From an uncultured bacterium (GTDB lineage Bacteria > Babelota > Babeliae > Babelales > Vermiphilaceae), in assembly GCA_963702025.1 (NCBI GenBank), contig OY969699.1, positions 1,532,034-1,596,033 of the forward strand: DNA of 64,000 nucleotides, given 5' to 3'. Position 1 is the first letter of the stretch. Every line of letters starts with the position of its first letter. The notes under the pieces were generated by a model. The model did not search any database and was not told where the DNA came from. It saw only the letters and a program-made list of their open reading frames with translations. Below are positions 25,629 to 38,330 of this stretch, in pieces. The position numbers and the translations under genes are program-made.

Positions 25629-26552
25629 ATGAATCATTTTGTATTAATTTCCATAGTCTCAGTGGCGTTTACTGCTGCCGCATACGAAAAAGATTTTACC
25701 ACACTACGACCAGTAACCATCGCCATATTAGCAAAAGATAAGGCACATTGTTTACCGCTTTATCTTTCCTGCATTGAAAAACAGACATGGCCCAAATCTA
25801 TGACCTATTTGTATATCCGAACCAATGACAATAATGACAATAGCGCACAAATATTGCATGATTGGGTTAATAAAGTTAAGGATCAGTATTTAGGCATCTT
25901 TTTTGATGATTCCGATGCGCCGATTAGTGTAAAACAATACGTTCAACATGAATGGAACTGTACTCGGTTCAAAGTATTAGGTGCAATACGTCAAGCTTCT
26001 TTGGATTGGGCTTACGAACATGGGTCACATTATTTTGTGATTGACTGTGATAACTTTATATTTCCCCATACGGTTGAAACAATGGTATACACGAATCTTC
26101 CTATAGTGGCGCCTTTGCTTCATAGCAATTGCGCATATTCAAACTTTCATGCGGATATCGACTCTAACGGTTACCTAAAAGATTCGCCATTTTATCTACC
26201 ATTAGTAAATAGAGAAATAAAAGGGCATGTACAAGTTCCGGTAGCTCATTGCACCTATTTTATTCGACATGAAGTATTACCGGAGATGAGTTACGATGAT
26301 GAAAGTTATCGCTACGAATATGTTATTTTTAGTGACAATGCACGGAAAAAAGAGATTCCACAATATCTTGATACCACCGATGTGTTTGGCTATGTTTCAT
26401 TTGCCGAAAACTCAAATGATCTGGTCAAAGAGCCATGGTTTTTGCCATTTACTATGAAATTACATAGTTTTAACCCTTCGAGACCCGTCTTCGCCAAGGC
26501 TACGCCGGGCACCGCGCACGCTCCTCAGCCTGCCCGCCATAGCTCTGAATGA
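25629..26552 (+). CDS. GT-A glycosyltransferase resembling the N-terminal domain of collagen galactosyltransferase COLGALT/PLOD; signal peptide; C-terminus recoded by a repeat
   Basis: IAILAKDKAHCLP, RTNDNNDNSAQILHDW, RQASL, VIDCDNFI, IVAPLL..AYSNF, VPVAHCTY. Confidence 0.75.
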   Translation: MNHFVLISIVSVAFTAAAYEKDFTTLRPVTIAILAKDKAHCLPLYLSCIEKQTWPKSMTYLYIRTNDNNDNSAQILHDWVNKVKDQYLGIFFDDSDAPISVKQYVQHEWNCTRFKVLGAIRQASLDWAYEHGSHYFVIDCDNFIFPHTVETMVYTNLPIVAPLLHSNCAYSNFHADIDSNGYLKDSPFYLPLVNREIKGHVQVPVAHCTYFIRHEVLPEMSYDDESYRYEYVIFSDNARKKEIPQYLDTTDVFGYVSFAENSNDLVKEPWFLPFTMKLHSFNPSRPVFAKATPGTAHAPQPARHSSE

Positions 26553-31204: not shown

Positions 31205-32257
31205 TTAGTTTATTTTAAAAAAACTTTTAACATACTGCAATGGATGAAAGGCTCCATGACTAATCTGATTAATTTCATCTTGATAAAAGATCAATAAACC
31301 AATAAAAGTCACGAATGACGCGTATAAGAAATTGAGGGTGAGTGGTTCGCCAAGGAGAATATTACTAAATAAGTACACATACAATGGTACTGAAAACCCG
31401 GCAAGCGAAACAAAGGTTGCAGTATGCCTTTTGAGAAAGTGCGCATACATTGTGTAGCCGATCACGTTACCGATAATAATCGTGTAAAGAACTGCAAAAA
31501 TTATTATATGGAGATTTGTGTCTGGCGTTACCGCTACATGCAAAAATTGTGTTGCATCAGAAAATGTATACGGTGCAAAATAACCCTTCATAAAAGGAAT
31601 TTTTTCTATTATAAAATTAGTACCTGCCCACAAAAAAGGAGTAACAAACGCAAGGATCCCACTTATGGTCATCAACAAACCATTTGCTTCGGGTGGTGTA
31701 TAACGGTCTTTGCGTAATAATTGCTGTACCAACATCCATCCTATCCGGCCAATGGCCATGGCAAGCAGTGCGGCAATTTCCGGGTATGAGAATATTGACC
31801 AAGCAATAAGCTGATTTTCTCCCGTTGATGATGAAATAAGCAAAATGAGTGTCCCGGCAAAGCCGAGAATAATGCCAATTATTTTTTTCTTAGTAAGCCG
31901 TTCAGCCCAAAAAAGATACGCGTATAAGGCAGTTACAAAGGGGTCAAGACTCGCCAAGAATGCAGCTTTTGAGGTGAGCATATTTTTTAATGCATATGCT
32001 TTAAAAAGTGCCGGCACCAGCATAGTTAATAATGAAATACCCAACAGAATAAAAAGATCTTGTTTAAAATAGGCAAAAGAAAGCCGATGACTCTTTTTGC
32101 GATAATACAACAAAAGAATTATCCCCGCGCCCAACATGCGCAGACCGACCATTAATGAAAGAGAAAGCGCTGAAAGCGCATATTTATTGGCAACTGTTGC
32201 ACTTGCTAAAAACGCAAAACCGAGAAAAACATCAAACATTACGGACAACCTTTGCAA
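31205..32257 (-). CDS. EamA/DMT-family transporter (paralog of 29609..30532)
   Basis: GLRMLGAG, SKAAFLASLDPF, FSYPE, YAHFLKRHTATF. Confidence 0.85.
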   Translation of the reverse strand: MQRLSVMFDVFLGFAFLASATVANKYALSALSLSLMVGLRMLGAGIILLLYYRKKSHRLSFAYFKQDLFILLGISLLTMLVPALFKAYALKNMLTSKAAFLASLDPFVTALYAYLFWAERLTKKKIIGIILGFAGTLILLISSSTGENQLIAWSIFSYPEIAALLAMAIGRIGWMLVQQLLRKDRYTPPEANGLLMTISGILAFVTPFLWAGTNFIIEKIPFMKGYFAPYTFSDATQFLHVAVTPDTNLHIIIFAVLYTIIIGNVIGYTMYAHFLKRHTATFVSLAGFSVPLYVYLFSNILLGEPLTLNFLYASFVTFIGLLIFYQDEINQISHGAFHPLQYVKSFFKIN

Positions 32258-32351
32258 GTGCTATCAAATTTATTTAATATTATTTCCTTTAAAAGACTGG
32301 CCGCGCCCGCCATAGCTCGTTAGGTCGAGATAATTCATTTCGATGCAATGA

Positions 32352-32568
32352 GTCCAGCCTTCGCTTTTTTCTAGCCAGCTCATTAGTTCTAGCATTGAAG
32401 CTACGGCGGACAGCCTACGCTAGTTCTATCAAGCCCAAATTATTTCTATATCAATCCGTTAAAAAACTGGCCGTGCCAGCCGTCCTTCGAGACGCAGCTT
32501 ACGCTGCTCCTCAGGATGAGCGGAAGGACGCGTTTACTCCTGAGCTTGCCGAAGGGCTTGGCGTAGGC
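32352..32568 (-). repeat. tRNA-trailer hairpin element downstream of tRNA-Leu(CAG), containing a 90-bp repeat
   Basis: CA-GCCTACGC pairs with GCGTAGGC-TG (32411-32420); distal unit GTCCAGCCTTCGCTT...AAGCTACGGCGGAC. Confidence 0.75.
32468..32556. repeat. About 90-bp dispersed repeat, copy 1
   Basis: TGGCCGTGCCAGCCGTCCTTCGA...CTCAGGATGAGCGGAAGGACGCGTTTACTCC, shared with 36890-36972 (reverse) and 54823-54911. Confidence 0.85.
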
Positions 32569-32655
32569 TGGTGCCGAGAGCCGGATTCGAACCGGCACAG
32601 TGTTGCCACCGCAGGCACCTGAAGCCTGTGCGTCTACCAATTTCGCCATCTCGGC
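32569..32655 (-). tRNA. tRNA-Leu(CAG)
   Basis: GCCGAGA acceptor; CAGGC-TTCAGGT-GCCTG anticodon arm; long variable arm; GGTTCGAATCC; encoded CCA. Confidence 0.96.
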
Positions 32656-32726
32656 ATATTTTCAATTAAGATTAGAATAAAGCAGTTATAAGAAAATGCA
32701 AAGAATAGTTTAAATAGGCCTATTTT

Positions 32727-33071
32727 TTAAAATTCTGCAAATTTCTTGCCTGCAAGAAAATGGATATGACTATGAAAAACCACCTGCCCTGCATCAGCCC
32801 CATTATTCACCAATAATTTAAATGATTGGGACCCTGATAACCCTTTTGCTAATTGTTTTGCCATTAGTAGCATTTGACCAGCAAGATTGGTGTCAGAATC
32901 TTGAAATTCGGTAATATCAGCAATATGCCTTTTGGGCAGAATCAAATAGTGGATTGGCGCCTTGGGATTAATATCTTTAATCACAATAATTTCTTGATTC
33001 TCTGCAATAATTGTTGCTGGTAATTCTCGAGCAATTATTTTACAAAAGATACATGAAGACATGTTATTCAA
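32727..33071 (-). CDS. hinT: HIT-family nucleotide-binding protein
   Basis: CIFCKII, DINPKAPIHYLILPK, AGQVVFHSHIH. Confidence 0.9.
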   Translation of the reverse strand: MNNMSSCIFCKIIARELPATIIAENQEIIVIKDINPKAPIHYLILPKRHIADITEFQDSDTNLAGQMLLMAKQLAKGLSGSQSFKLLVNNGADAGQVVFHSHIHFLAGKKFAEF

Positions 33072-33127
33072 TCCAAAAATATTTTTATTATTATTTAAAA
33101 GAAGCTGACGGCTCTAGGTTGCTGCTC

Positions 33128-33306
33128 GTCCGTCTACGCTTTCACTTCGTCAATATCAATTACTAAAGAAGTTTGTGCTTCCCAGCCGTCGCTCTTCGAG
33201 CTATGGCGGGCAGGGCTGCCGGACAGTCTTCGCATCCTGCTTTTCAAATTTTTTGTTCTACCTTATAGGGTTGGCGAAGCCAGGCGTAGCCCGCTAGGGC
33301 GAAGAC
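33128..33306 (-). repeat. tRNA-trailer hairpin element downstream of tRNA-Leu(CAA), with a nested unit
   Basis: GTCTTCGCCCTAGCGGGCTACGCCTGGCT immediately after CCA (identical to the tRNA-Ser(TGA) trailer); GCGAAGACTGTCCGGCA; nested unit at 33181-33214. Confidence 0.8.
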
Positions 33307-33394
33307 TGGTGCCGGGGGTCGGACTCGAACCGACATGATGTCAAACATCGCTGGATTTTGAGTCCAGTGCGTCTACCAATTCCGCCATCCCGGC
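33307..33394 (-). tRNA. tRNA-Leu(CAA)
   Basis: GCCGGGA acceptor; CTGGA-CTCAAAA-TCCAG; GGTTCGAGTCC; CCA. Confidence 0.96.
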
Positions 33395-33471
33395 ATTAAA
33401 ATATGCTATTAATAATAGCGCAAATTACGCTATCGTCAATAAAAAACATCCCCTGTCTATATGCTTATTGT

Positions 33472-34662
33472 TCAGATAACAAAGGCAACGTTCATGATTG
33501 GTGTATAAATCGCAACGATAAGTGTCCCAATCATAAGACCCAGAAATACCAGAAGACATGGACCAAAAAGTGCATTCGCGCGCGTCAAATTTTTTAAAAG
33601 GCGTTCTTCATGAAATTCGGCGATCCGAGTCAATATTTCTGTGAGCATCCCTGTCTCTTGCGCCACCTGCAAGAGCGCAATTGTTTCTTGATCACACAAA
33701 GTGGTACTTTCTTTCAATGCATGGGCCATTGTGTTGCCTGCTTTTACCTGATCGAATGCCCCATGTAATTGCTTTCTTATATGCTGATTTGCAACAGACT
33801 CTTTTACAATATTGCATGCCTGAATAAGTGATGTGCCGCCTTCTAATAAAAGCGCCAGCGATTTAAAAAATGTTGCCATTGTATTTGCCGTATAAATTGC
33901 CGCTAAAAAAGGAACTCGCAATGTCAGAGCATCAATTCGCGATTTCCCCGAAGCGGTAGCTGCATAAATTTTGGCACCATAAAAAGCTGCCGCACCGATG
34001 AGCATAAGCAAGATCATCTGCCAACTTTGAATAAAATTACTTACTCCAATTAAGAATTTGGTGCTACCGGGCAACTCTTTGTGCAACGACCCAAAAACAG
34101 CCGTTAGTTGAGGCACCACAACAACTAAAATAATGGCAGTAACCAGTACAAAAAAAGCGGCAGTTACTAACGGCAAAAGAAGCGCGCTGCGTAACTTTTT
34201 TTTAAATTCAGCAACCGATTCAAGATGTTTGCATAATACCTGCAGGGAACCTATGATATTCCCCGATTCTTGTCCCACGCTCATCATTTGAACCATTATC
34301 GGACTAAAGAACTTGGGGAATTGGCACAACGCCTGCGATAAAAAGATACCATTATTAACTTGATGGGCAACGCCAGATGTTGCCGAGCCAAACCCGGTAT
34401 GCGCGGTCTGGTGCGCAAGCAGAAAAAGTGCTTCAGGAAGCCGCATTCCTGATTTAATCAGCATAGTAAGTTGGGTGAAATAATGTATTTTATCCTGCAA
34501 ACTCATCTGTTTTGATAGTCTAAATTTTTTCTGGCGGCAAGAAAGCAGCGCAACCTCTTGCTTTAATAATACTCCATCGAGTTCTTCAGGAGTTCGCGCA
34601 AAATATATTCCTTTTTTTGTTCCTGCTTGCAGGGTAATGCCTTTCCATGAAAAATAGGGCAT
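33472..34662 (-). CDS. Type II secretion/type IV pilus inner-membrane platform protein (GspF/PilC family)
   Basis: QLTMLIKSG, VGQESG, LRSALLLP, LLEGG, IVAIYTPI; duplicated F domains. Confidence 0.88.
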   Translation of the reverse strand: MPYFSWKGITLQAGTKKGIYFARTPEELDGVLLKQEVALLSCRQKKFRLSKQMSLQDKIHYFTQLTMLIKSGMRLPEALFLLAHQTAHTGFGSATSGVAHQVNNGIFLSQALCQFPKFFSPIMVQMMSVGQESGNIIGSLQVLCKHLESVAEFKKKLRSALLLPLVTAAFFVLVTAIILVVVVPQLTAVFGSLHKELPGSTKFLIGVSNFIQSWQMILLMLIGAAAFYGAKIYAATASGKSRIDALTLRVPFLAAIYTANTMATFFKSLALLLEGGTSLIQACNIVKESVANQHIRKQLHGAFDQVKAGNTMAHALKESTTLCDQETIALLQVAQETGMLTEILTRIAEFHEERLLKNLTRANALFGPCLLVFLGLMIGTLIVAIYTPIMNVAFVI

Positions 34663-34674
34663 AGCTCTCCTTGT

Positions 34675-34962
34675 TTAGAATACGGTAAGTTGACGCTCAA
34701 TTCCCAATGCTGCCAGCAATTGTTCATAGGTAATATTCGTATCAATTTTTATTCTTTTATTGCGATCGGTTGCTCCCGAAACAATTGTTATATGATTTTG
34801 CGTAATTCGTAATGCCTTTGCAATAGTTTTAACGAGCTCCTCATTGGCAAGCCCGCGCTCGGCAGGATTCTTTAAATAACCTTTAAGAATGCCTGATTTA
34901 TCAATGATCCATCTGCTTTGCCCTGAAGAAGGAACCACTTTTATCTGAACAATTAATGCCAT
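34675..34962 (-). CDS. DUF167/YggU-family protein
   Basis: IKVVPSS, PAERGLANEELV, IVSGATDRNKRIKI. Confidence 0.85.
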   Translation of the reverse strand: MALIVQIKVVPSSGQSRWIIDKSGILKGYLKNPAERGLANEELVKTIAKALRITQNHITIVSGATDRNKRIKIDTNITYEQLLAALGIERQLTVF

Positions 34963-35054
34963 GATGTTCCTTTACAATTATGCTTTATCATAGACAATGC
35001 TTGCATAAAATCGCAAATAATTTATTCTTTTTGTATCTTTGAAAAATAAGTTAA

Positions 35055-35145
35055 GGAGAGATGGCTGAGTGGCCTAAAGCGCTTGCCTGCTAAGCAAGAG
35101 CTCCAGAAATGGGGCACGAGGGTTCGAATCCCTCTCTCTCCACCA
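35055..35145 (+). tRNA. tRNA-Ser(GCT)
   Basis: GGAGAGA acceptor; CTTGC-CTGCTAA-GCAAG; long variable arm; CCA. Confidence 0.96.
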
Positions 35146-35268
35146 TACTTCGCTAAAGCTTCGTATGGCAGGCCAGTTTCTTTTAAGGATTGGCTTAATT
35201 AAAATTTTGACATTAATAGCACTAAGCGAAGTATGCCCTTCGAAGCTCCGAAAGGAGCGAAGTAGGGC
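35146..35268 (+). repeat. tRNA-trailer hairpin element downstream of tRNA-Ser(GCT)
   Basis: CCATAC-TTC-GCTAAAGC-TTC-GTATGG; GCGAAGTATG at 35226; GCCCT..GCTCCGAAAGGAGC..AGGGC. Confidence 0.8.
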
Positions 35269-35318
35269 CTGGCGCAGCCTGGACTATTATGCTAAAGAGC
35301 AATTTTTAAAGATTTCAT

Positions 35319-35395
35319 GCGCCTATAGCTCAATTGGATAGAGCGTCAGACTACGGATCTGAAGGTTTAAGGTTCGACTCCTTATAGGCGCACCA
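35319..35395 (+). tRNA. tRNA-Arg(ACG)
   Basis: GCGCCTA acceptor; TCAGA-CTACGGA-TCTGA; GGTTCGACTCC; CCA. Confidence 0.96.
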
Positions 35396-35586
35396 GTCTT
35401 CGCCTACGTGGGCTAGACTTCGAAGTATAAACACGGCTACGCCTGGCGCGGCCAGTCAATTATAGGGCGGAGTTTATCCTGAGCGAAGTCGAAGGGCCTG
35501 GCAGGCCAGTCTTTAAGGAAGCAAAATAAATTATAATAGCAAAATGCGAAGACTGTCCGGCATAGCCCGTATGGGCGACGACGGAC
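35396..35586 (+). repeat. tRNA-trailer hairpin element downstream of tRNA-Arg(ACG)
   Basis: GTCTTCGC...GGCTACGCCTGG; GCGAAGACTGTCCGGCATAGCCCGTATGGGCGACGACGGAC (35546-35586). Confidence 0.8.
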
Positions 35587-35621
35587 TAGCTGGCATCTAT
35601 TAAAGTTTTTTACCTAATAAC

Positions 35622-35885
35622 ATGATGCATTACGTATATATATTAAGATCTGTAAATTTTCGTAACCAGATTTACATTGGTGTAACTGTAAATCTGAAGA
35701 AAAGACTCTCAGACCATAATTGTGGAAATTCTGCTCACACTTCAAAATATAAGCCATGGGAATTAAATTCTTATCATGCATTTAGCAATGAAAATACTGC
35801 TATAGCTTTTGAGAAGTATCTTAAGACACATTCTGGTAGAGCTTTTCTTAGCAAAAGATTAGTATCAAATAACATTCGCCCGTAA
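35622..35885 (+). CDS. Small stand-alone GIY-YIG nuclease
   Basis: YVYIL...IYIGVT, RLSDHN, HTSKYKPWEL, AIAFEKYLK. Confidence 0.92.
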   Translation: MMHYVYILRSVNFRNQIYIGVTVNLKKRLSDHNCGNSAHTSKYKPWELNSYHAFSNENTAIAFEKYLKTHSGRAFLSKRLVSNNIRP

Positions 35886-35997
35886 AGGGCTTGCATCATC
35901 GCCCTTCGAATACTTCTACCTCTTGCAAATTGTGCCTCAAATAGTGTAATTTTTATATATCTAATCAATCCATTATTATTTAAAGCAGGAGAATTTT

Positions 35998-36369
35998 ATG
36001 AAAAAAATACTTTTATCCTTAGCATTGCTTGCCTGTCCTTTTTTGTGGTCGGCAACAGAATTAACTGAGTCAAATGCTCAAAGCTTTATTGAATCATCCA
36101 AGGGTATATTAGTTGTTGATTTTTATGCACATTGGTGCCCACCATGCAAACAGATGAAGCCAATTTTTGAGAGCTTGGCAGATGAATATAAGGGAAAGTA
36201 CACTTTTGCAGAAGTAGATATCGCTACTTATCCAGCTGTGGGAAGAATGTACAATATACAGGCGATGCCAACGTTTGTAATCTTTAAAAATGGTAAAAAA
36301 GTCGCCACTTCACAAGGTGGAAGATCAAAAGAAGATCTTCTGAGCTGGATTGAGAAAAATACCAAGTAA
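35998..36369 (+). CDS. Thioredoxin with signal peptide
   Basis: VDFYAHWCPPCK, MPTF; N-terminus MKKILLSLALLACPFLWS. Confidence 0.9.
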   Translation: MKKILLSLALLACPFLWSATELTESNAQSFIESSKGILVVDFYAHWCPPCKQMKPIFESLADEYKGKYTFAEVDIATYPAVGRMYNIQAMPTFVIFKNGKKVATSQGGRSKEDLLSWIEKNTK

Positions 36370-36384
36370 TTAACTTTAATCTTG

Positions 36385-36415
36385 AAAAAGGCAGTTATTG
36401 TAACTGCCTTTTTTT
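36385..36415 (+). terminator. Rho-independent terminator
   Basis: AAAAAGGCAGTTA-TTG-TAACTGCCTTTTTTT after the thioredoxin stop. Confidence 0.85.
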
Positions 36416-36421
36416 ATTCGA

Positions 36422-36604
36422 GTTAGCGAGCGCTTGGCTCAGTACAACAATGGGAGTTCATTTCATACTTCCAAATATTCCCCTTGGGAACTCGAAGTAT
36501 ACGTTGCTTTCAAAGACGCACAAGTTGCTATTAAGTTCGAAAAATATCTTAAATCTTGCTCAGGTAGAGCCTTTATTCGTAACCGATTACAAACTTCGAA
36601 TTGA
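36422..36604 (+). pseudogene. N-terminally truncated GIY-YIG nuclease paralog
   Basis: Translates VSERLAQYNNGSSFHTSKYSPWEL...AIKFEKYLKSCSGRAFIRNRLQTSN*; no start and no GIY/YIG motifs; absent from the ORF track. Confidence 0.85.
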
Positions 36605-36645
36605 TTTTTCTATTAATATAATTAATAATATTACTTATTATTTTC

Positions 36646-36737
36646 GGAGAGATGGCAGAGCGGTTGAATGCGGCGGTCTTGAAAACCGTTATTCCGTGAG
36701 AACGGAATCGTGGGTTCGAATCCCACTCTCTCCTCCA
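36646..36737 (+). tRNA. tRNA-Ser(TGA)
   Basis: GGAGAGA acceptor; GCGGT-CTTGAAA-ACCGT; long variable arm; CCA. Confidence 0.95.
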
Positions 36738-36849
36738 GTCTTCGCCCTAGCGGGCTACGCCTGGCTGCGCCGCTTAATAAGGCAGAACAAAAAAGATTGA
36801 AATCAATGCGCGAAGACTGTCCGGCATAGCCCGAAGGGCGACGACGGAC
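36738..36849 (+). repeat. tRNA-trailer hairpin element downstream of tRNA-Ser(TGA)
   Basis: GTCTTCGCCCTAGCGGGCTACGCCTGG; GCGAAGACTGTCCGGCATAGCCCGAAGGGCGACGACGGAC. Confidence 0.8.
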
Positions 36850-36889
36850 AAACGGCCAGAATTAAAAGAAATTTTTTCGCTCTTACGAT

Positions 36890-37007
36890 CCTTCGACCGG
36901 GAGTAAACGCGTCCTTCCGCTCATCCTGAGTAGAAAACGCAGTTTTCGTATCGAAGGACGGTTGGCACGGCCTGCTCTTCGTAGCTGCTTAGGCAGCGAA
37001 GTAGAGC
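36890..37007. repeat. About 90-bp repeat copy 2 (reverse orientation) plus an adjacent hairpin unit
   Basis: Reverse complement of the 32468 and 54823 copies, then GCTCT-TC-GTA-GCTGC-TTAG-GCAGC-GAA-GT-AGAGC. Confidence 0.8.
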
Positions 37008-37083
37008 CAGCATATTGCAGCCCTTCTTTACTTGAAATCAATAAACCTCATTTGTAACATACATTACTACTTCAGGTTCTATC

Positions 37084-37607: not shown

Positions 37608-38330
37608 ATGGAATTTTTACGAATAACTACTTTTTTGCCACTATTTGGCATGTTTCCTGTTTTAGCTATGGAGATGCCTAAATCAAATAATAATGCGATC
37701 CATGTCATCGAAGTTCTTGTCGAAAAAATTGCCACACAGCAACAATCGCCAGCCTCGATTCAAGAGGGTGACGAGTCGACTATGAGCGACAACGATGCAA
37801 ATACGCCTAACTTGCATCGGGCAACACCAAGTATCACTCTTAATATTCTTGATGAAAATAGTAATGCTAAATCTGGATATAATAAGGGTAAAAAATATAA
37901 TTGCGACATCTGTAATTATGAAACAAACAGTTTCATTTCATTAGGCCGCCATAAAAAAACGCACAATGAAGAAAAACATTGCGATGTTCCAGGTTGCACA
38001 GTTGTCTGTTATACTAAATACGGACTTACAAAACACCAAAATTCTTGCCACCAAGAATTACAATATGCCTGTGATTACCCAGACTGCCCCTATAGTGGCA
38101 GTATACGTGCCGTTTCTGATCACAAAAAAACTCACCATGAAAAAAATTATTATTGCGATTATGAAGGATGTGAATTCTCAACTGCTAGCAAAACAGGTCT
38201 TACCCTACATCAGAATAGGCGCCACAAAGAAAAAAAATATCATTGCAATCAACAAGGTTGTGAATATAGCACCAGTACCGAAAGTGCTCTTTCAGCACAT
38301 AAAGCGCAAAAACATAACATCTTCAAATGA
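37608..38330 (+). CDS. Secreted protein with five tandem C2H2 zinc fingers
   Basis: C-x2/4-C-x11/12-H-x3/4-H five times (CDICNY, CDVPGC, CDYPDC, CDYEGC, CNQQGC); signal peptide ending VLA-ME. Confidence 0.88.
   Translation: MEFLRITTFLPLFGMFPVLAMEMPKSNNNAIHVIEVLVEKIATQQQSPASIQEGDESTMSDNDANTPNLHRATPSITLNILDENSNAKSGYNKGKKYNCDICNYETNSFISLGRHKKTHNEEKHCDVPGCTVVCYTKYGLTKHQNSCHQELQYACDYPDCPYSGSIRAVSDHKKTHHEKNYYCDYEGCEFSTASKTGLTLHQNRRHKEKKYHCNQQGCEYSTSTESALSAHKAQKHNIFK

Follow-up and report, generated by a model that had tools for sequence, protein, structure and literature searches.

The window, a 64,000-nt stretch of DNA analysed at its full length, contains exactly five tRNA genes, on which ARAGORN and Rfam agree, and behind each of them lies a copy of a palindromic element that begins at the CCA of the tRNA itself (Table 1). 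At all five genes a 10-base proximal arm starts with the last CA of the tRNA and has a single exact reverse complement 75-152 bases downstream, as the first-pass annotation of this DNA had reported. That annotation had also described a local hairpin, interrupted by a 3x3 internal loop, and an inverted copy of this hairpin after the distal arm, and we find both. It had missed the GIY-YIG gene that immediately follows the Arg element.

Table 1. Features of the five tRNA loci (positions are those of the window)
Feature	Position	Strand	Basis and parts
tRNA-Leu(CAG), host target gene	32569..32655	-	ARAGORN, Rfam
Leu-CAG element copy	32352..32571	-	proximal arm 32570-32561, distal arm 32420-32411; loop filled by nested second repeat (~32474-32556), then spacer; inverted unit ends at 32352
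Tandem decayed second module (spacer + distal arm) behind Leu-CAG copy	32240..32345	-	repeat families D10, D12; beyond the range of the first-pass annotation
tRNA-Leu(CAA), host target gene	33307..33394	-	ARAGORN, Rfam
Leu-CAA element copy	33128..33309	-	proximal arm 33308-33299, distal arm 33233-33224; nested hairpins in inverted unit
tRNA-Ser(GCT), host target gene	35055..35145	+	ARAGORN, Rfam
Ser-GCT element copy	35143..35268	+	proximal arm 35144-35153, distal arm 35226-35235; local hairpin 35143-35168; inverted unit 35235-35268
tRNA-Arg(ACG), host target gene	35319..35395	+	ARAGORN, Rfam
Arg-ACG element copy	35393..35586	+	proximal arm 35394-35403, distal arm 35546-35555, inverted unit 35555-35586; spacer start duplicated; copy is the leader of the GIY-YIG nuclease gene
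Intact 87-aa single-domain GIY-YIG nuclease gene	35622..35885	+	PF01541, E 2e-17
Decayed hairpin unit over nuclease stop codon	35872..35897	+	inferred by eye; resembles Arg-TCG copy
5'-truncated second GIY-YIG copy just before tRNA-Ser(TGA)	36401..36604	+	query residues 18-84, one internal stop
tRNA-Ser(TGA), host target gene	36646..36737	+	ARAGORN, Rfam
Ser-TGA element copy	36735..36849	+	proximal arm 36736-36745, distal arm 36810-36819, inverted unit 36819-36849
Rearranged second module that follows Ser-TGA	36850..37010	+	repeat families I4, I5, D6; nested second repeat ~36900-36960; inverted unit 36974-37008

Architecture and predicted folds

The element runs from the target CCA through a hairpin unit with the 3x3 internal loop, an AT-rich spacer of about 50 nt and an inverted half-unit to an inverted full unit; complete copies also have the nuclease gene, 20-60 nt further on. 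The internal loop is unpaired and pyrimidine-rich in nearly all units. The spacers, previously taken to be unrelated to one another, have features in common: 47 of 57 are 42-63 nt long, 45 of 53 have a GCCA box after the local hairpin (shuffle mean 3.6), and 21 of 53 contain a TTGAT/CA-type word (shuffle mean 2.3). An IHF-type site was found exactly in 5 of 53 spacers (shuffle mean 0.3) and with one mismatch in 17 of 53 (5.6 expected). With exact matches in so few, the site is at most a subfamily trait and was rejected as a defining part of the element. Inspection of the spacer by eye revealed no consistent -35/-10 promoter spacing. As to terminal inverted repeats of the MITE type, 10-bp inverted arms are present, the element extends past the distal arm, and bases of the target form part of the left arm; no target-site duplication was seen when CCA-end copies were compared with empty loci.

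Compensatory change, already proposed from the window alone, holds across a wider sample: of 64 elements drawn from 38 genomes, 46 have matching bases at each of the four variable positions, compared with 7.7 by shuffling, and more than a dozen compensatory variants were found. G-U pairs occupy 3 of 380 cells of the long-range helix, along with 9 mismatches, and 0 of 304 cells of the local helix. A distal arm lies within 170 nt in 64 of the 204 elements collected, a count lowered by nested inserts, cut loci and decay. In the present genome this arm is mismatched or lost at Cys, Leu-TAG, Ser-CGA, Gly-GCC, Val-TAC and Leu-GAG. The five window tRNAs are the best cases, and at many loci the long-range arm is decayed or absent. 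Also, where two mutually exclusive folds had been envisaged, three competing ones are predicted, as the first hairpin can additionally pair with its inverted copy (at Ser-TGA, and at 51% for Leu-CAG).

Distribution, turnover and the linked nuclease gene

Two checks that had been suggested with the first-pass annotation, enrichment at CCA ends genome-wide and the existence of empty as well as filled tRNA loci, both gave positive results. The 1.6-Mb host genome has, over its two strands, 65 occurrences of the CCA-anchored motif, and since 30 of these fall exactly at tRNA/tmRNA ends, the placement is not a matter of chance; 30 of the 40 tRNA/tmRNA calls are followed by the element and 10 are not. 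The 3' ends of RNase P RNA and SRP RNA are without it, and a general stable-RNA trailer was rejected on that ground. Trailers at unrelated tRNAs of the host genome are 85-99% alike (identical over 84 nt for Leu-TAG and Lys-CTT, 89% for Cys and Ser-GCT); the orthologous Ser-GCT trailer in seven relatives is 49-65% alike, being of another subtype, decayed or empty. Filled and empty versions of orthologous tRNA loci both exist among relatives, and five near-complete nuclease-free genomes of the host's family have bare tRNA trailers with a few relics. At the level of sequence comparison, spread between tRNA loci, turnover and loss of the element are shown.

tRNA genes are the usual landing sites of islands and the sites at which integration into bacterial chromosomes is most frequent. 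At Arg-TCT and Asp, serine-recombinase islands separate the CCA from the element, having integrated exactly at the junction of the two. Copies are also retained at island ends distant from any tRNA. Some copies begin at a stem or discriminator CCA (Ser-GCT of locus L092, a tmRNA-like call at 182484, L023 and L025), and others are insertions within tRNA genes (L092, L011 and L015), with 36-58 nt of the tRNA 5' part duplicated. The unit before a second nuclease gene, at genome position 1019229, is a non-CCA copy with a TTC-based hairpin foot. No circular or excised form was detected in four DNA runs, which were thin, mixed with other organisms and assembled in short contigs. Two features of these runs, a joint from the Ser-GCT end to just before the Arg gene with 9 other bases (X3) and a Leu-CAG trailer that differs (X4), are probably derived from other organisms or strains and carry no evidential weight.

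The 87-aa protein matches PF01541 over residues 2-73, with conserved residues Y6, Y18, G20, R28 and E64. It has a Slx1/UPF0213-like fold: of the solved structures, the branched-DNA nucleases Slx1/HIGLE and UPF0213 match it best in both sequence and fold (TM 0.57-0.72 by query), and its family has its own C-terminal helix beyond the catalytic domain; NCBIfam yielded no significant family for it. The gene is present in 56 of 80 genomes of the host's family, patchily and with several copies per genome, and truncated or stop-bearing copies are frequent. A same-strand tRNA/tmRNA lies 123-502 nt upstream in 24 of 30 nuclease loci of that family, with 11 kinds of target; of the other six, five begin at CCA and a hairpin unit and the last is truncated at a contig end. 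In GTDB nuclease loci from many phyla, the sequence just upstream contains a tRNA/tmRNA end or fragment in at least 27 of 31. One culturable carrier is Chthoniobacter flavus, in which the copy is linked to tmRNA (L021). Among 44 genomes of the host's family, which as kin are not independent, 22 have both element and nuclease, 15 neither, 2 the element only and 5 the nuclease only. Downstream of the gene lies a further unit at some loci and unrelated sequence at most; with no shared right end, the boundary of the mobile unit is not defined.

Several candidate vehicles and classes were set aside. No relative of the nuclease was found in collections of phages (50,697 records) or plasmids, which speaks against a vehicle of either kind. 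In the host genome, which is 95% complete, we found no reverse transcriptase (PF00078), as a tRNA-CCA-primed retroelement would call for, and no Y1/RAYT gene (PF01797; the control matched in 6 of 14 genomes), as a RAYT-driven REP would. At gathering score, Rfam 15 identified tRNA alone in the window and just tRNA/tmRNA in 18 related loci; a theta/HDV-like ribozyme was set aside for want of an Rfam match.

Explanations for the element at tRNA ends

We think it probable that this is a selfish, REPIN/BIME-like DNA element of tRNA/tmRNA ends, partnered by a free-standing putative GIY-YIG nuclease of about 80 aa. Of the two possibilities raised by the first-pass annotation, one was a palindromic mobile element directed at the 3' ends of tRNAs, and it is the one to which the CCA enrichment, the filled and empty loci, the near-identical copies and the linked nuclease gene point. 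In single-stranded DNA the nuclease would bind to the hairpin unit, in the manner of SsnA and its own repeat, and would nick beside it, with the inverted arrangement offering one unit per strand. The nick could then be repaired by template switching or one-sided strand invasion, for which the conserved T-arm/acceptor/CCA end would serve as the anchor, so that a different tRNA end acquires a copy. The arms would covary as inverted copies of one recognition unit, copied and corrected together with no selection for a pre-tRNA helix, and folding of the transcript over the CCA would be a tolerated by-product. A further, rather doubtful idea is that the hairpin foot bases serve as a DNA guide: where a tRNA gene is folded as single-stranded DNA, they would pair with its target CCA. 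The 80-residue GIY-YIG protein would be the sole encoded enzyme, tRNA/tmRNA ends of any identity would be found by shape and three paired bases, and the mode of DNA mobility would be new; what suggests it is that the hairpin foot varies with the flank at non-CCA copies, such as that at 1019229.

Strong covariation beside tRNAs does not necessarily denote structured RNA. The other early suggestion was a structured trailer controlling tRNA maturation; in its present form, the RNA would mask the CCA and steer pre-tRNA 3' maturation or turnover by a local/long-range switch, with the nuclease as a passenger or processing enzyme. In predicted folds of tRNA plus trailer the cloverleaf is indeed preserved and the trailer is strongly paired (z about -4.3 with the tRNA counted in), the element lies amid same-strand tRNAs in the clusters Ser-Arg and Tyr-Gly-Thr and so is probably transcribed, and a search of the host genome gave no RNase Z that scored above the family cut-off. 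However, nearly all tRNA ends of the five same-family genomes, and a quarter of the calls here, do without such a trailer, and copies are located inside tRNA genes, at stem or discriminator CCAs and at island ends without a tRNA. Moreover, the second unit, as an inverted copy, has its 'sense' form on the non-transcribed strand, G-U pairs are few, and SsnA was described as binding single-stranded DNA and not RNA (main text of PMC11893778). We therefore regard RNA control as improbable.

A domesticated nuclease-repeat pair that would guard tRNA genes, by cutting incoming hairpin-bearing single-stranded DNA or modulating recombination, has a precedent in SsnA, which modulates transformation in Neisseria (PMC11893778), and would suit a gene this common with conserved active-site residues. 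It is nevertheless unlikely, given that islands at Arg-TCT and Asp entered between CCA and element, so that integration was not blocked, and that frequent broken copies, multiple copies per genome and patchy presence fit a selfish element. Ordinary gene conversion of similar tRNA 3' ends with quasi-palindrome correction might also spread a neutral repeat, in some copies of which the nuclease hitch-hikes: adjacent loci are the most alike (Leu-TAG/Lys-CTT), and template switching by itself yields complementary arms without selection. Yet correction would erase the internal loop, which is retained in nearly all units, the pairing of nuclease and element recurs across phyla, and nuclease-free genomes mostly lack the element; neutral spread thus has little probability.

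Relation to known repeat and nuclease systems

With REP/REPIN/BIME sequences and their RAYTs (PMC3733652, PMC3184786) the element shares short GC-rich imperfect hairpins, inverted pairs around a spacer, as in REPINs, and mosaics; some of its spacers fit an IHF-type site, and BIMEs bind IHF (PMC3184786). It differs in having no detectable Y1/RAYT gene, no GTAG or CGTC tag and a strict tRNA/tmRNA-end position, and PMC3733652 has no passage on tRNA-end repeats or GIY-YIG. Compared with Slx1/HIGLE/UPF0213 (YhbQ-type) proteins, the present protein is the catalytic domain alone plus the family-specific helix. Slx1 is a larger eukaryotic branched-DNA nuclease that acts with a partner. Phage T4 SegB likewise is a self-spreading GIY-YIG gene among tRNA genes, with a site that includes the conserved T-loop motif; its substrate for cutting is double-stranded DNA, its homing is between allelic regions of phages, and the abstract describing it mentions no hairpin repeats or gene-less copies (PMC2330249), whereas the present element moves between non-allelic chromosomal tRNAs and had no relative in the phage records searched.

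No description of the element was found in the literature searched; a related motif may be among the 224 candidate RNAs in the supplement of PMC5737381. The original impression that it belongs to no named family agrees with the literature searches and with Rfam 15; it needs qualification in that the Ssn nucleases with their hairpin repeats are of the same general kind (PMC11893778). SsnA (cd10448) is also a single-domain GIY-YIG protein of <100 aa, encoded beside its own hairpin repeats, of which many are gene-less, and the 87-aa protein falls under the Ssn definition of single-domain GIY-YIG proteins of <150 aa; the Ssn authors liken their layout to IS200/IS605-REP. In contrast, the present unit contains a 3x3 internal loop, extends over the target CCA and forms an inverted set around a fixed-length spacer, and tRNA and tmRNA are never mentioned in the main text of the Ssn paper. 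The published SRM pattern matches twice in the genome, neither near a tRNA, not at all at the window nuclease locus and at 4 of 70 nuclease loci; the gene is not flanked by SRM-pattern repeats, and SRM membership was rejected.

The findings thus describe a small, widespread and apparently undescribed element that resembles Ssn/SRM, though the SRM motif is absent and targeting of tRNAs is not described in the main text of that work. It occupies three quarters of the tRNA/tmRNA ends in its genome and occurs with the nuclease in many phyla. Its defined target, the tRNA CCA, its natural empty and filled alleles and its >12 compensatory variants are assets for mapping specificity, and it may yield new sequence-specific single-stranded DNA nucleases. 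As insertion of DNA by a lone Ssn-type nuclease is not established in PMC11893778, the element also provides a minimal test case for how a single small GIY-YIG nuclease spreads hairpin repeats, the question left open there for Ssn.

The element at tRNA and tmRNA ends

The hairpin element is real and widespread, and apparently undescribed so far. ARAGORN and Rfam placed five tRNA genes in the window, and at all five a single exact reverse complement of the 10-mer starting at the final CA lies 75-152 bases 3', as the first-pass annotation had reported; the local hairpin and inverted copy that it also claimed were both seen in the window sequence. Its statement that the spacers are unrelated does not hold, as these have boxes and length in common. 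The genome is a single contig of 1,596,033 bases and contains, over both strands, 65 occurrences of the CCA-anchored motif. Its enrichment at CCA ends was substantiated, with 30 of the 65 lying exactly at ends of the 40 ARAGORN tRNA/tmRNA calls. The ten motif-free calls are Arg-TCT, Gln, Asp, Glu, Arg-CCT, Pro, Val-GAC, Trp and the rRNA-operon Ile and Ala.

Behind each of the Arg-TCT, Asp and Gln tRNAs is an island that ends at the tRNA and carries a gene for a recombinase-like protein, which from its N-terminal motif we take to be a serine recombinase. For Arg-TCT and Asp the element resurfaces beyond the island (27 kb and 7.5 kb away, respectively) behind a 4-6 base tRNA-end repeat, and thus these islands inserted exactly between CCA and element. 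The island-side flank at Asp was found again in the loci L076/L006 and L078. Also, two tmRNA calls lie 9.6 kb apart, the first resembling the displaced end of an island that sits in tmRNA. At tRNA-Gly(TCC), the stem of an inverted unit takes the tRNA 5' end as one arm, with a similar arrangement in L027-L029; elements therefore also abut tRNA 5' ends. Partial tRNA duplications occur as well: in the tandem repeats behind tRNA-Arg(CCT), each repeat fuses the last 31 bases of the tRNA to an inverted hairpin unit, and in L092, L011 and L015 a 36-58 nt 5' tRNA fragment precedes the element, with a whole copy of that tRNA downstream. Additionally, the tRNA-element loops harbour a second family of hairpin repeats, and similar copies flank a different, frameshifted GIY-YIG gene; this genome seems to hold two nuclease-repeat pairs, one riding in the other.

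Coordinates of features in the window and in the whole contig (genome)
Feature	Window	Genome	Observation
87-aa GIY-YIG gene	35622..35885 (+)		behind Arg element
Third nuclease copy		1019370	intact
Island, tRNA-Arg(TCT)		44501-71566	
Island, tRNA-Asp		1238936-1246414	
Island, tRNA-Gln		986549-997365	
Decayed tRNA-like sequence		1246480-1246570	behind displaced Asp element
tRNA-Arg(CCT)		1144031-1144338	no encoded CCA; then 2 tandem 125-base repeats
Two tmRNA calls		182482-192477	element of different subtype behind each
Inverted unit, tRNA-Gly(TCC)		1405991	
Second repeat family	32474-32556, 36900-36960, 35470-35510		
Frameshifted GIY-YIG gene		1332.5 kb (1332000-1332900)	
Glycosyltransferase ORF	25629-26552	1558516 (hairpin unit)	C-terminal peptide apparently read through unit of element family
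240-aa ORF	37608-38330		tandem C2H2-type zinc fingers; unusual in a bacterium

Covariation of the arms

Among 278 distinct tRNA/tmRNA calls from all loci fetched, 204 carried the proximal motif, a ratio distinct from prevalence since most loci were selected for motif or nuclease. With the distal arm located from invariant bases only, it was found within 170 nt in 64 of the 204 elements. The compensatory changes proposed from the window were borne out: 46 of these 64 elements are complementary at every one of the four variable positions, versus 7.7 in global shuffles (maximum 21). Within-genome shuffles gave 8.5 fully complementary elements against 22 of 32 observed, and with one element per genome the figures were 4.4 shuffled and 27.7 of 38 observed. 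In an alignment of 38 simple copies, the long-range helix (380 cells) had 41 doubly changed cells, 3 G-U and 9 mismatches, and the local hairpin (304 cells) had 28, 0 and 13, the mismatches at one column; relatedness of the copies inflates these covariation counts. For the commonest proximal variant, the distal arm matches in 18 of 21 copies and the local partner in 2 of 21. Because matches exceed shuffles and most of the fifteen different proximal variants have a matching partner, the two arms are evidently maintained as inverted copies of each other.

Turnover and the linked nuclease

A search of 121 genomes of the class with a strict T-arm/CCA/unit pattern matched 58 of them and gave no control matches. 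Of 44 family genomes covered by both searches, 22 had element and nuclease, 15 neither, 2 the element only and 5 the nuclease only, in a table where kin are not independent and the strict pattern under-counts the element. Five family genomes (1-3 contigs) lacking both have bare AT-rich trailers at the tRNA ends listed, with 2-3 relics. Of seven relatives compared at the orthologous Ser-GCT locus, three carry other element subtypes, one has a decayed copy and three have no element; the Arg-ACG site is decayed or empty in every one of the six relatives where it was seen. Trailer identity is 81-99% for the best 22 paralogous pairs within the genome and 49-65% between relatives for orthologous Ser-GCT.

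The GIY-YIG gene starts 35 bases 3' of the Arg element; a truncated copy precedes Ser-TGA, and the third copy has the same element in front. The predicted structure is confident (pLDDT 91), its fold matches UPF0213 and Slx1/HIGLE, and the residues at its active-site positions are conserved among 30 homologues. The gene is present in 56 of 80 family genomes. Among the 30 best family loci, 24 have a same-strand tRNA/tmRNA 123-502 nt upstream, of eleven target kinds, five lack a whole tRNA and start at a CCA followed by the unit, and one is cut. Furthermore, a tRNA/tmRNA end or fragment lies directly upstream in at least 27 of 31 GTDB loci, a set that includes the near-duplicates L006/L076, L009-L011 and L003/L004; L024, L026 and L031 are exceptions with no such end upstream, and the 27 were counted without L017. 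By record title, these loci belong to Alphaproteobacteria, Desulfobacterales, Cloacimonadales, Melioribacteraceae, Kangiellaceae, Thermovirgaceae, Lentisphaerae, Chthoniobacter, Pirellulales, Woesebacteria, Magasanikbacteria and Babeliales. The window itself probably belongs to a Babeliae (Dependentiae) bacterium, judging by gene content and the title of locus L020. In L009-L011 and L014, true SRM-pattern repeats (the published hairpin repeats of Ssn nucleases) occur no more than 500 bases from the nuclease linked to the tRNA, separate from the element.

Proposed mechanism and relation to known systems

Given the demonstrated layout, tRNA-end target, turnover and association with an intact nuclease gene, our best reading is a selfish, REPIN-like DNA element spread by the nuclease. 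SsnA, according to PMC11893778, binds its oriented hairpin only when the DNA is single-stranded, and the cut lies a few bases upstream. By analogy, the nuclease would recognise the unit in single-stranded form and nick next to it. If it nicked 5' of the first unit, the break would be located at the 3' end of the tRNA, and the opposite strand would be nicked equivalently through the inverted unit. With the conserved tRNA end as anchor, repair might then copy the element to other tRNAs, which would account for the tandem modules and partial tRNA duplications. Counting against this mechanism, no common right end of a mobile unit was found at nuclease loci, no excised form in four thin, mixed DNA runs, and no vehicle for the nuclease in the phage or plasmid collections searched. 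A rival is an RNA trailer that controls tRNA maturation. Since the precursor is expected from predicted folds to fold over the CCA, such a trailer may act on it as a secondary effect, but it cannot be a step that maturation requires; the scarcity of G-U pairs is modest evidence for DNA-level identity over an RNA helix.

Searches of openly accessible papers found no description of the element, nor did passages of PMC3733652, PMC6429828, PMC3184786 and PMC2267715 contain one. Its CCA-end copies show no target-site duplication when compared with empty loci. It differs from Ssn/SRM in that its units do not match the SRM pattern, and from REPIN/RAYT in that no RAYT gene was found in this genome. 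Nevertheless, element and nuclease would operate as Ssn/SRM and REPIN/RAYT pairs do, and the preference for tRNA genes is common to the element and SegB.
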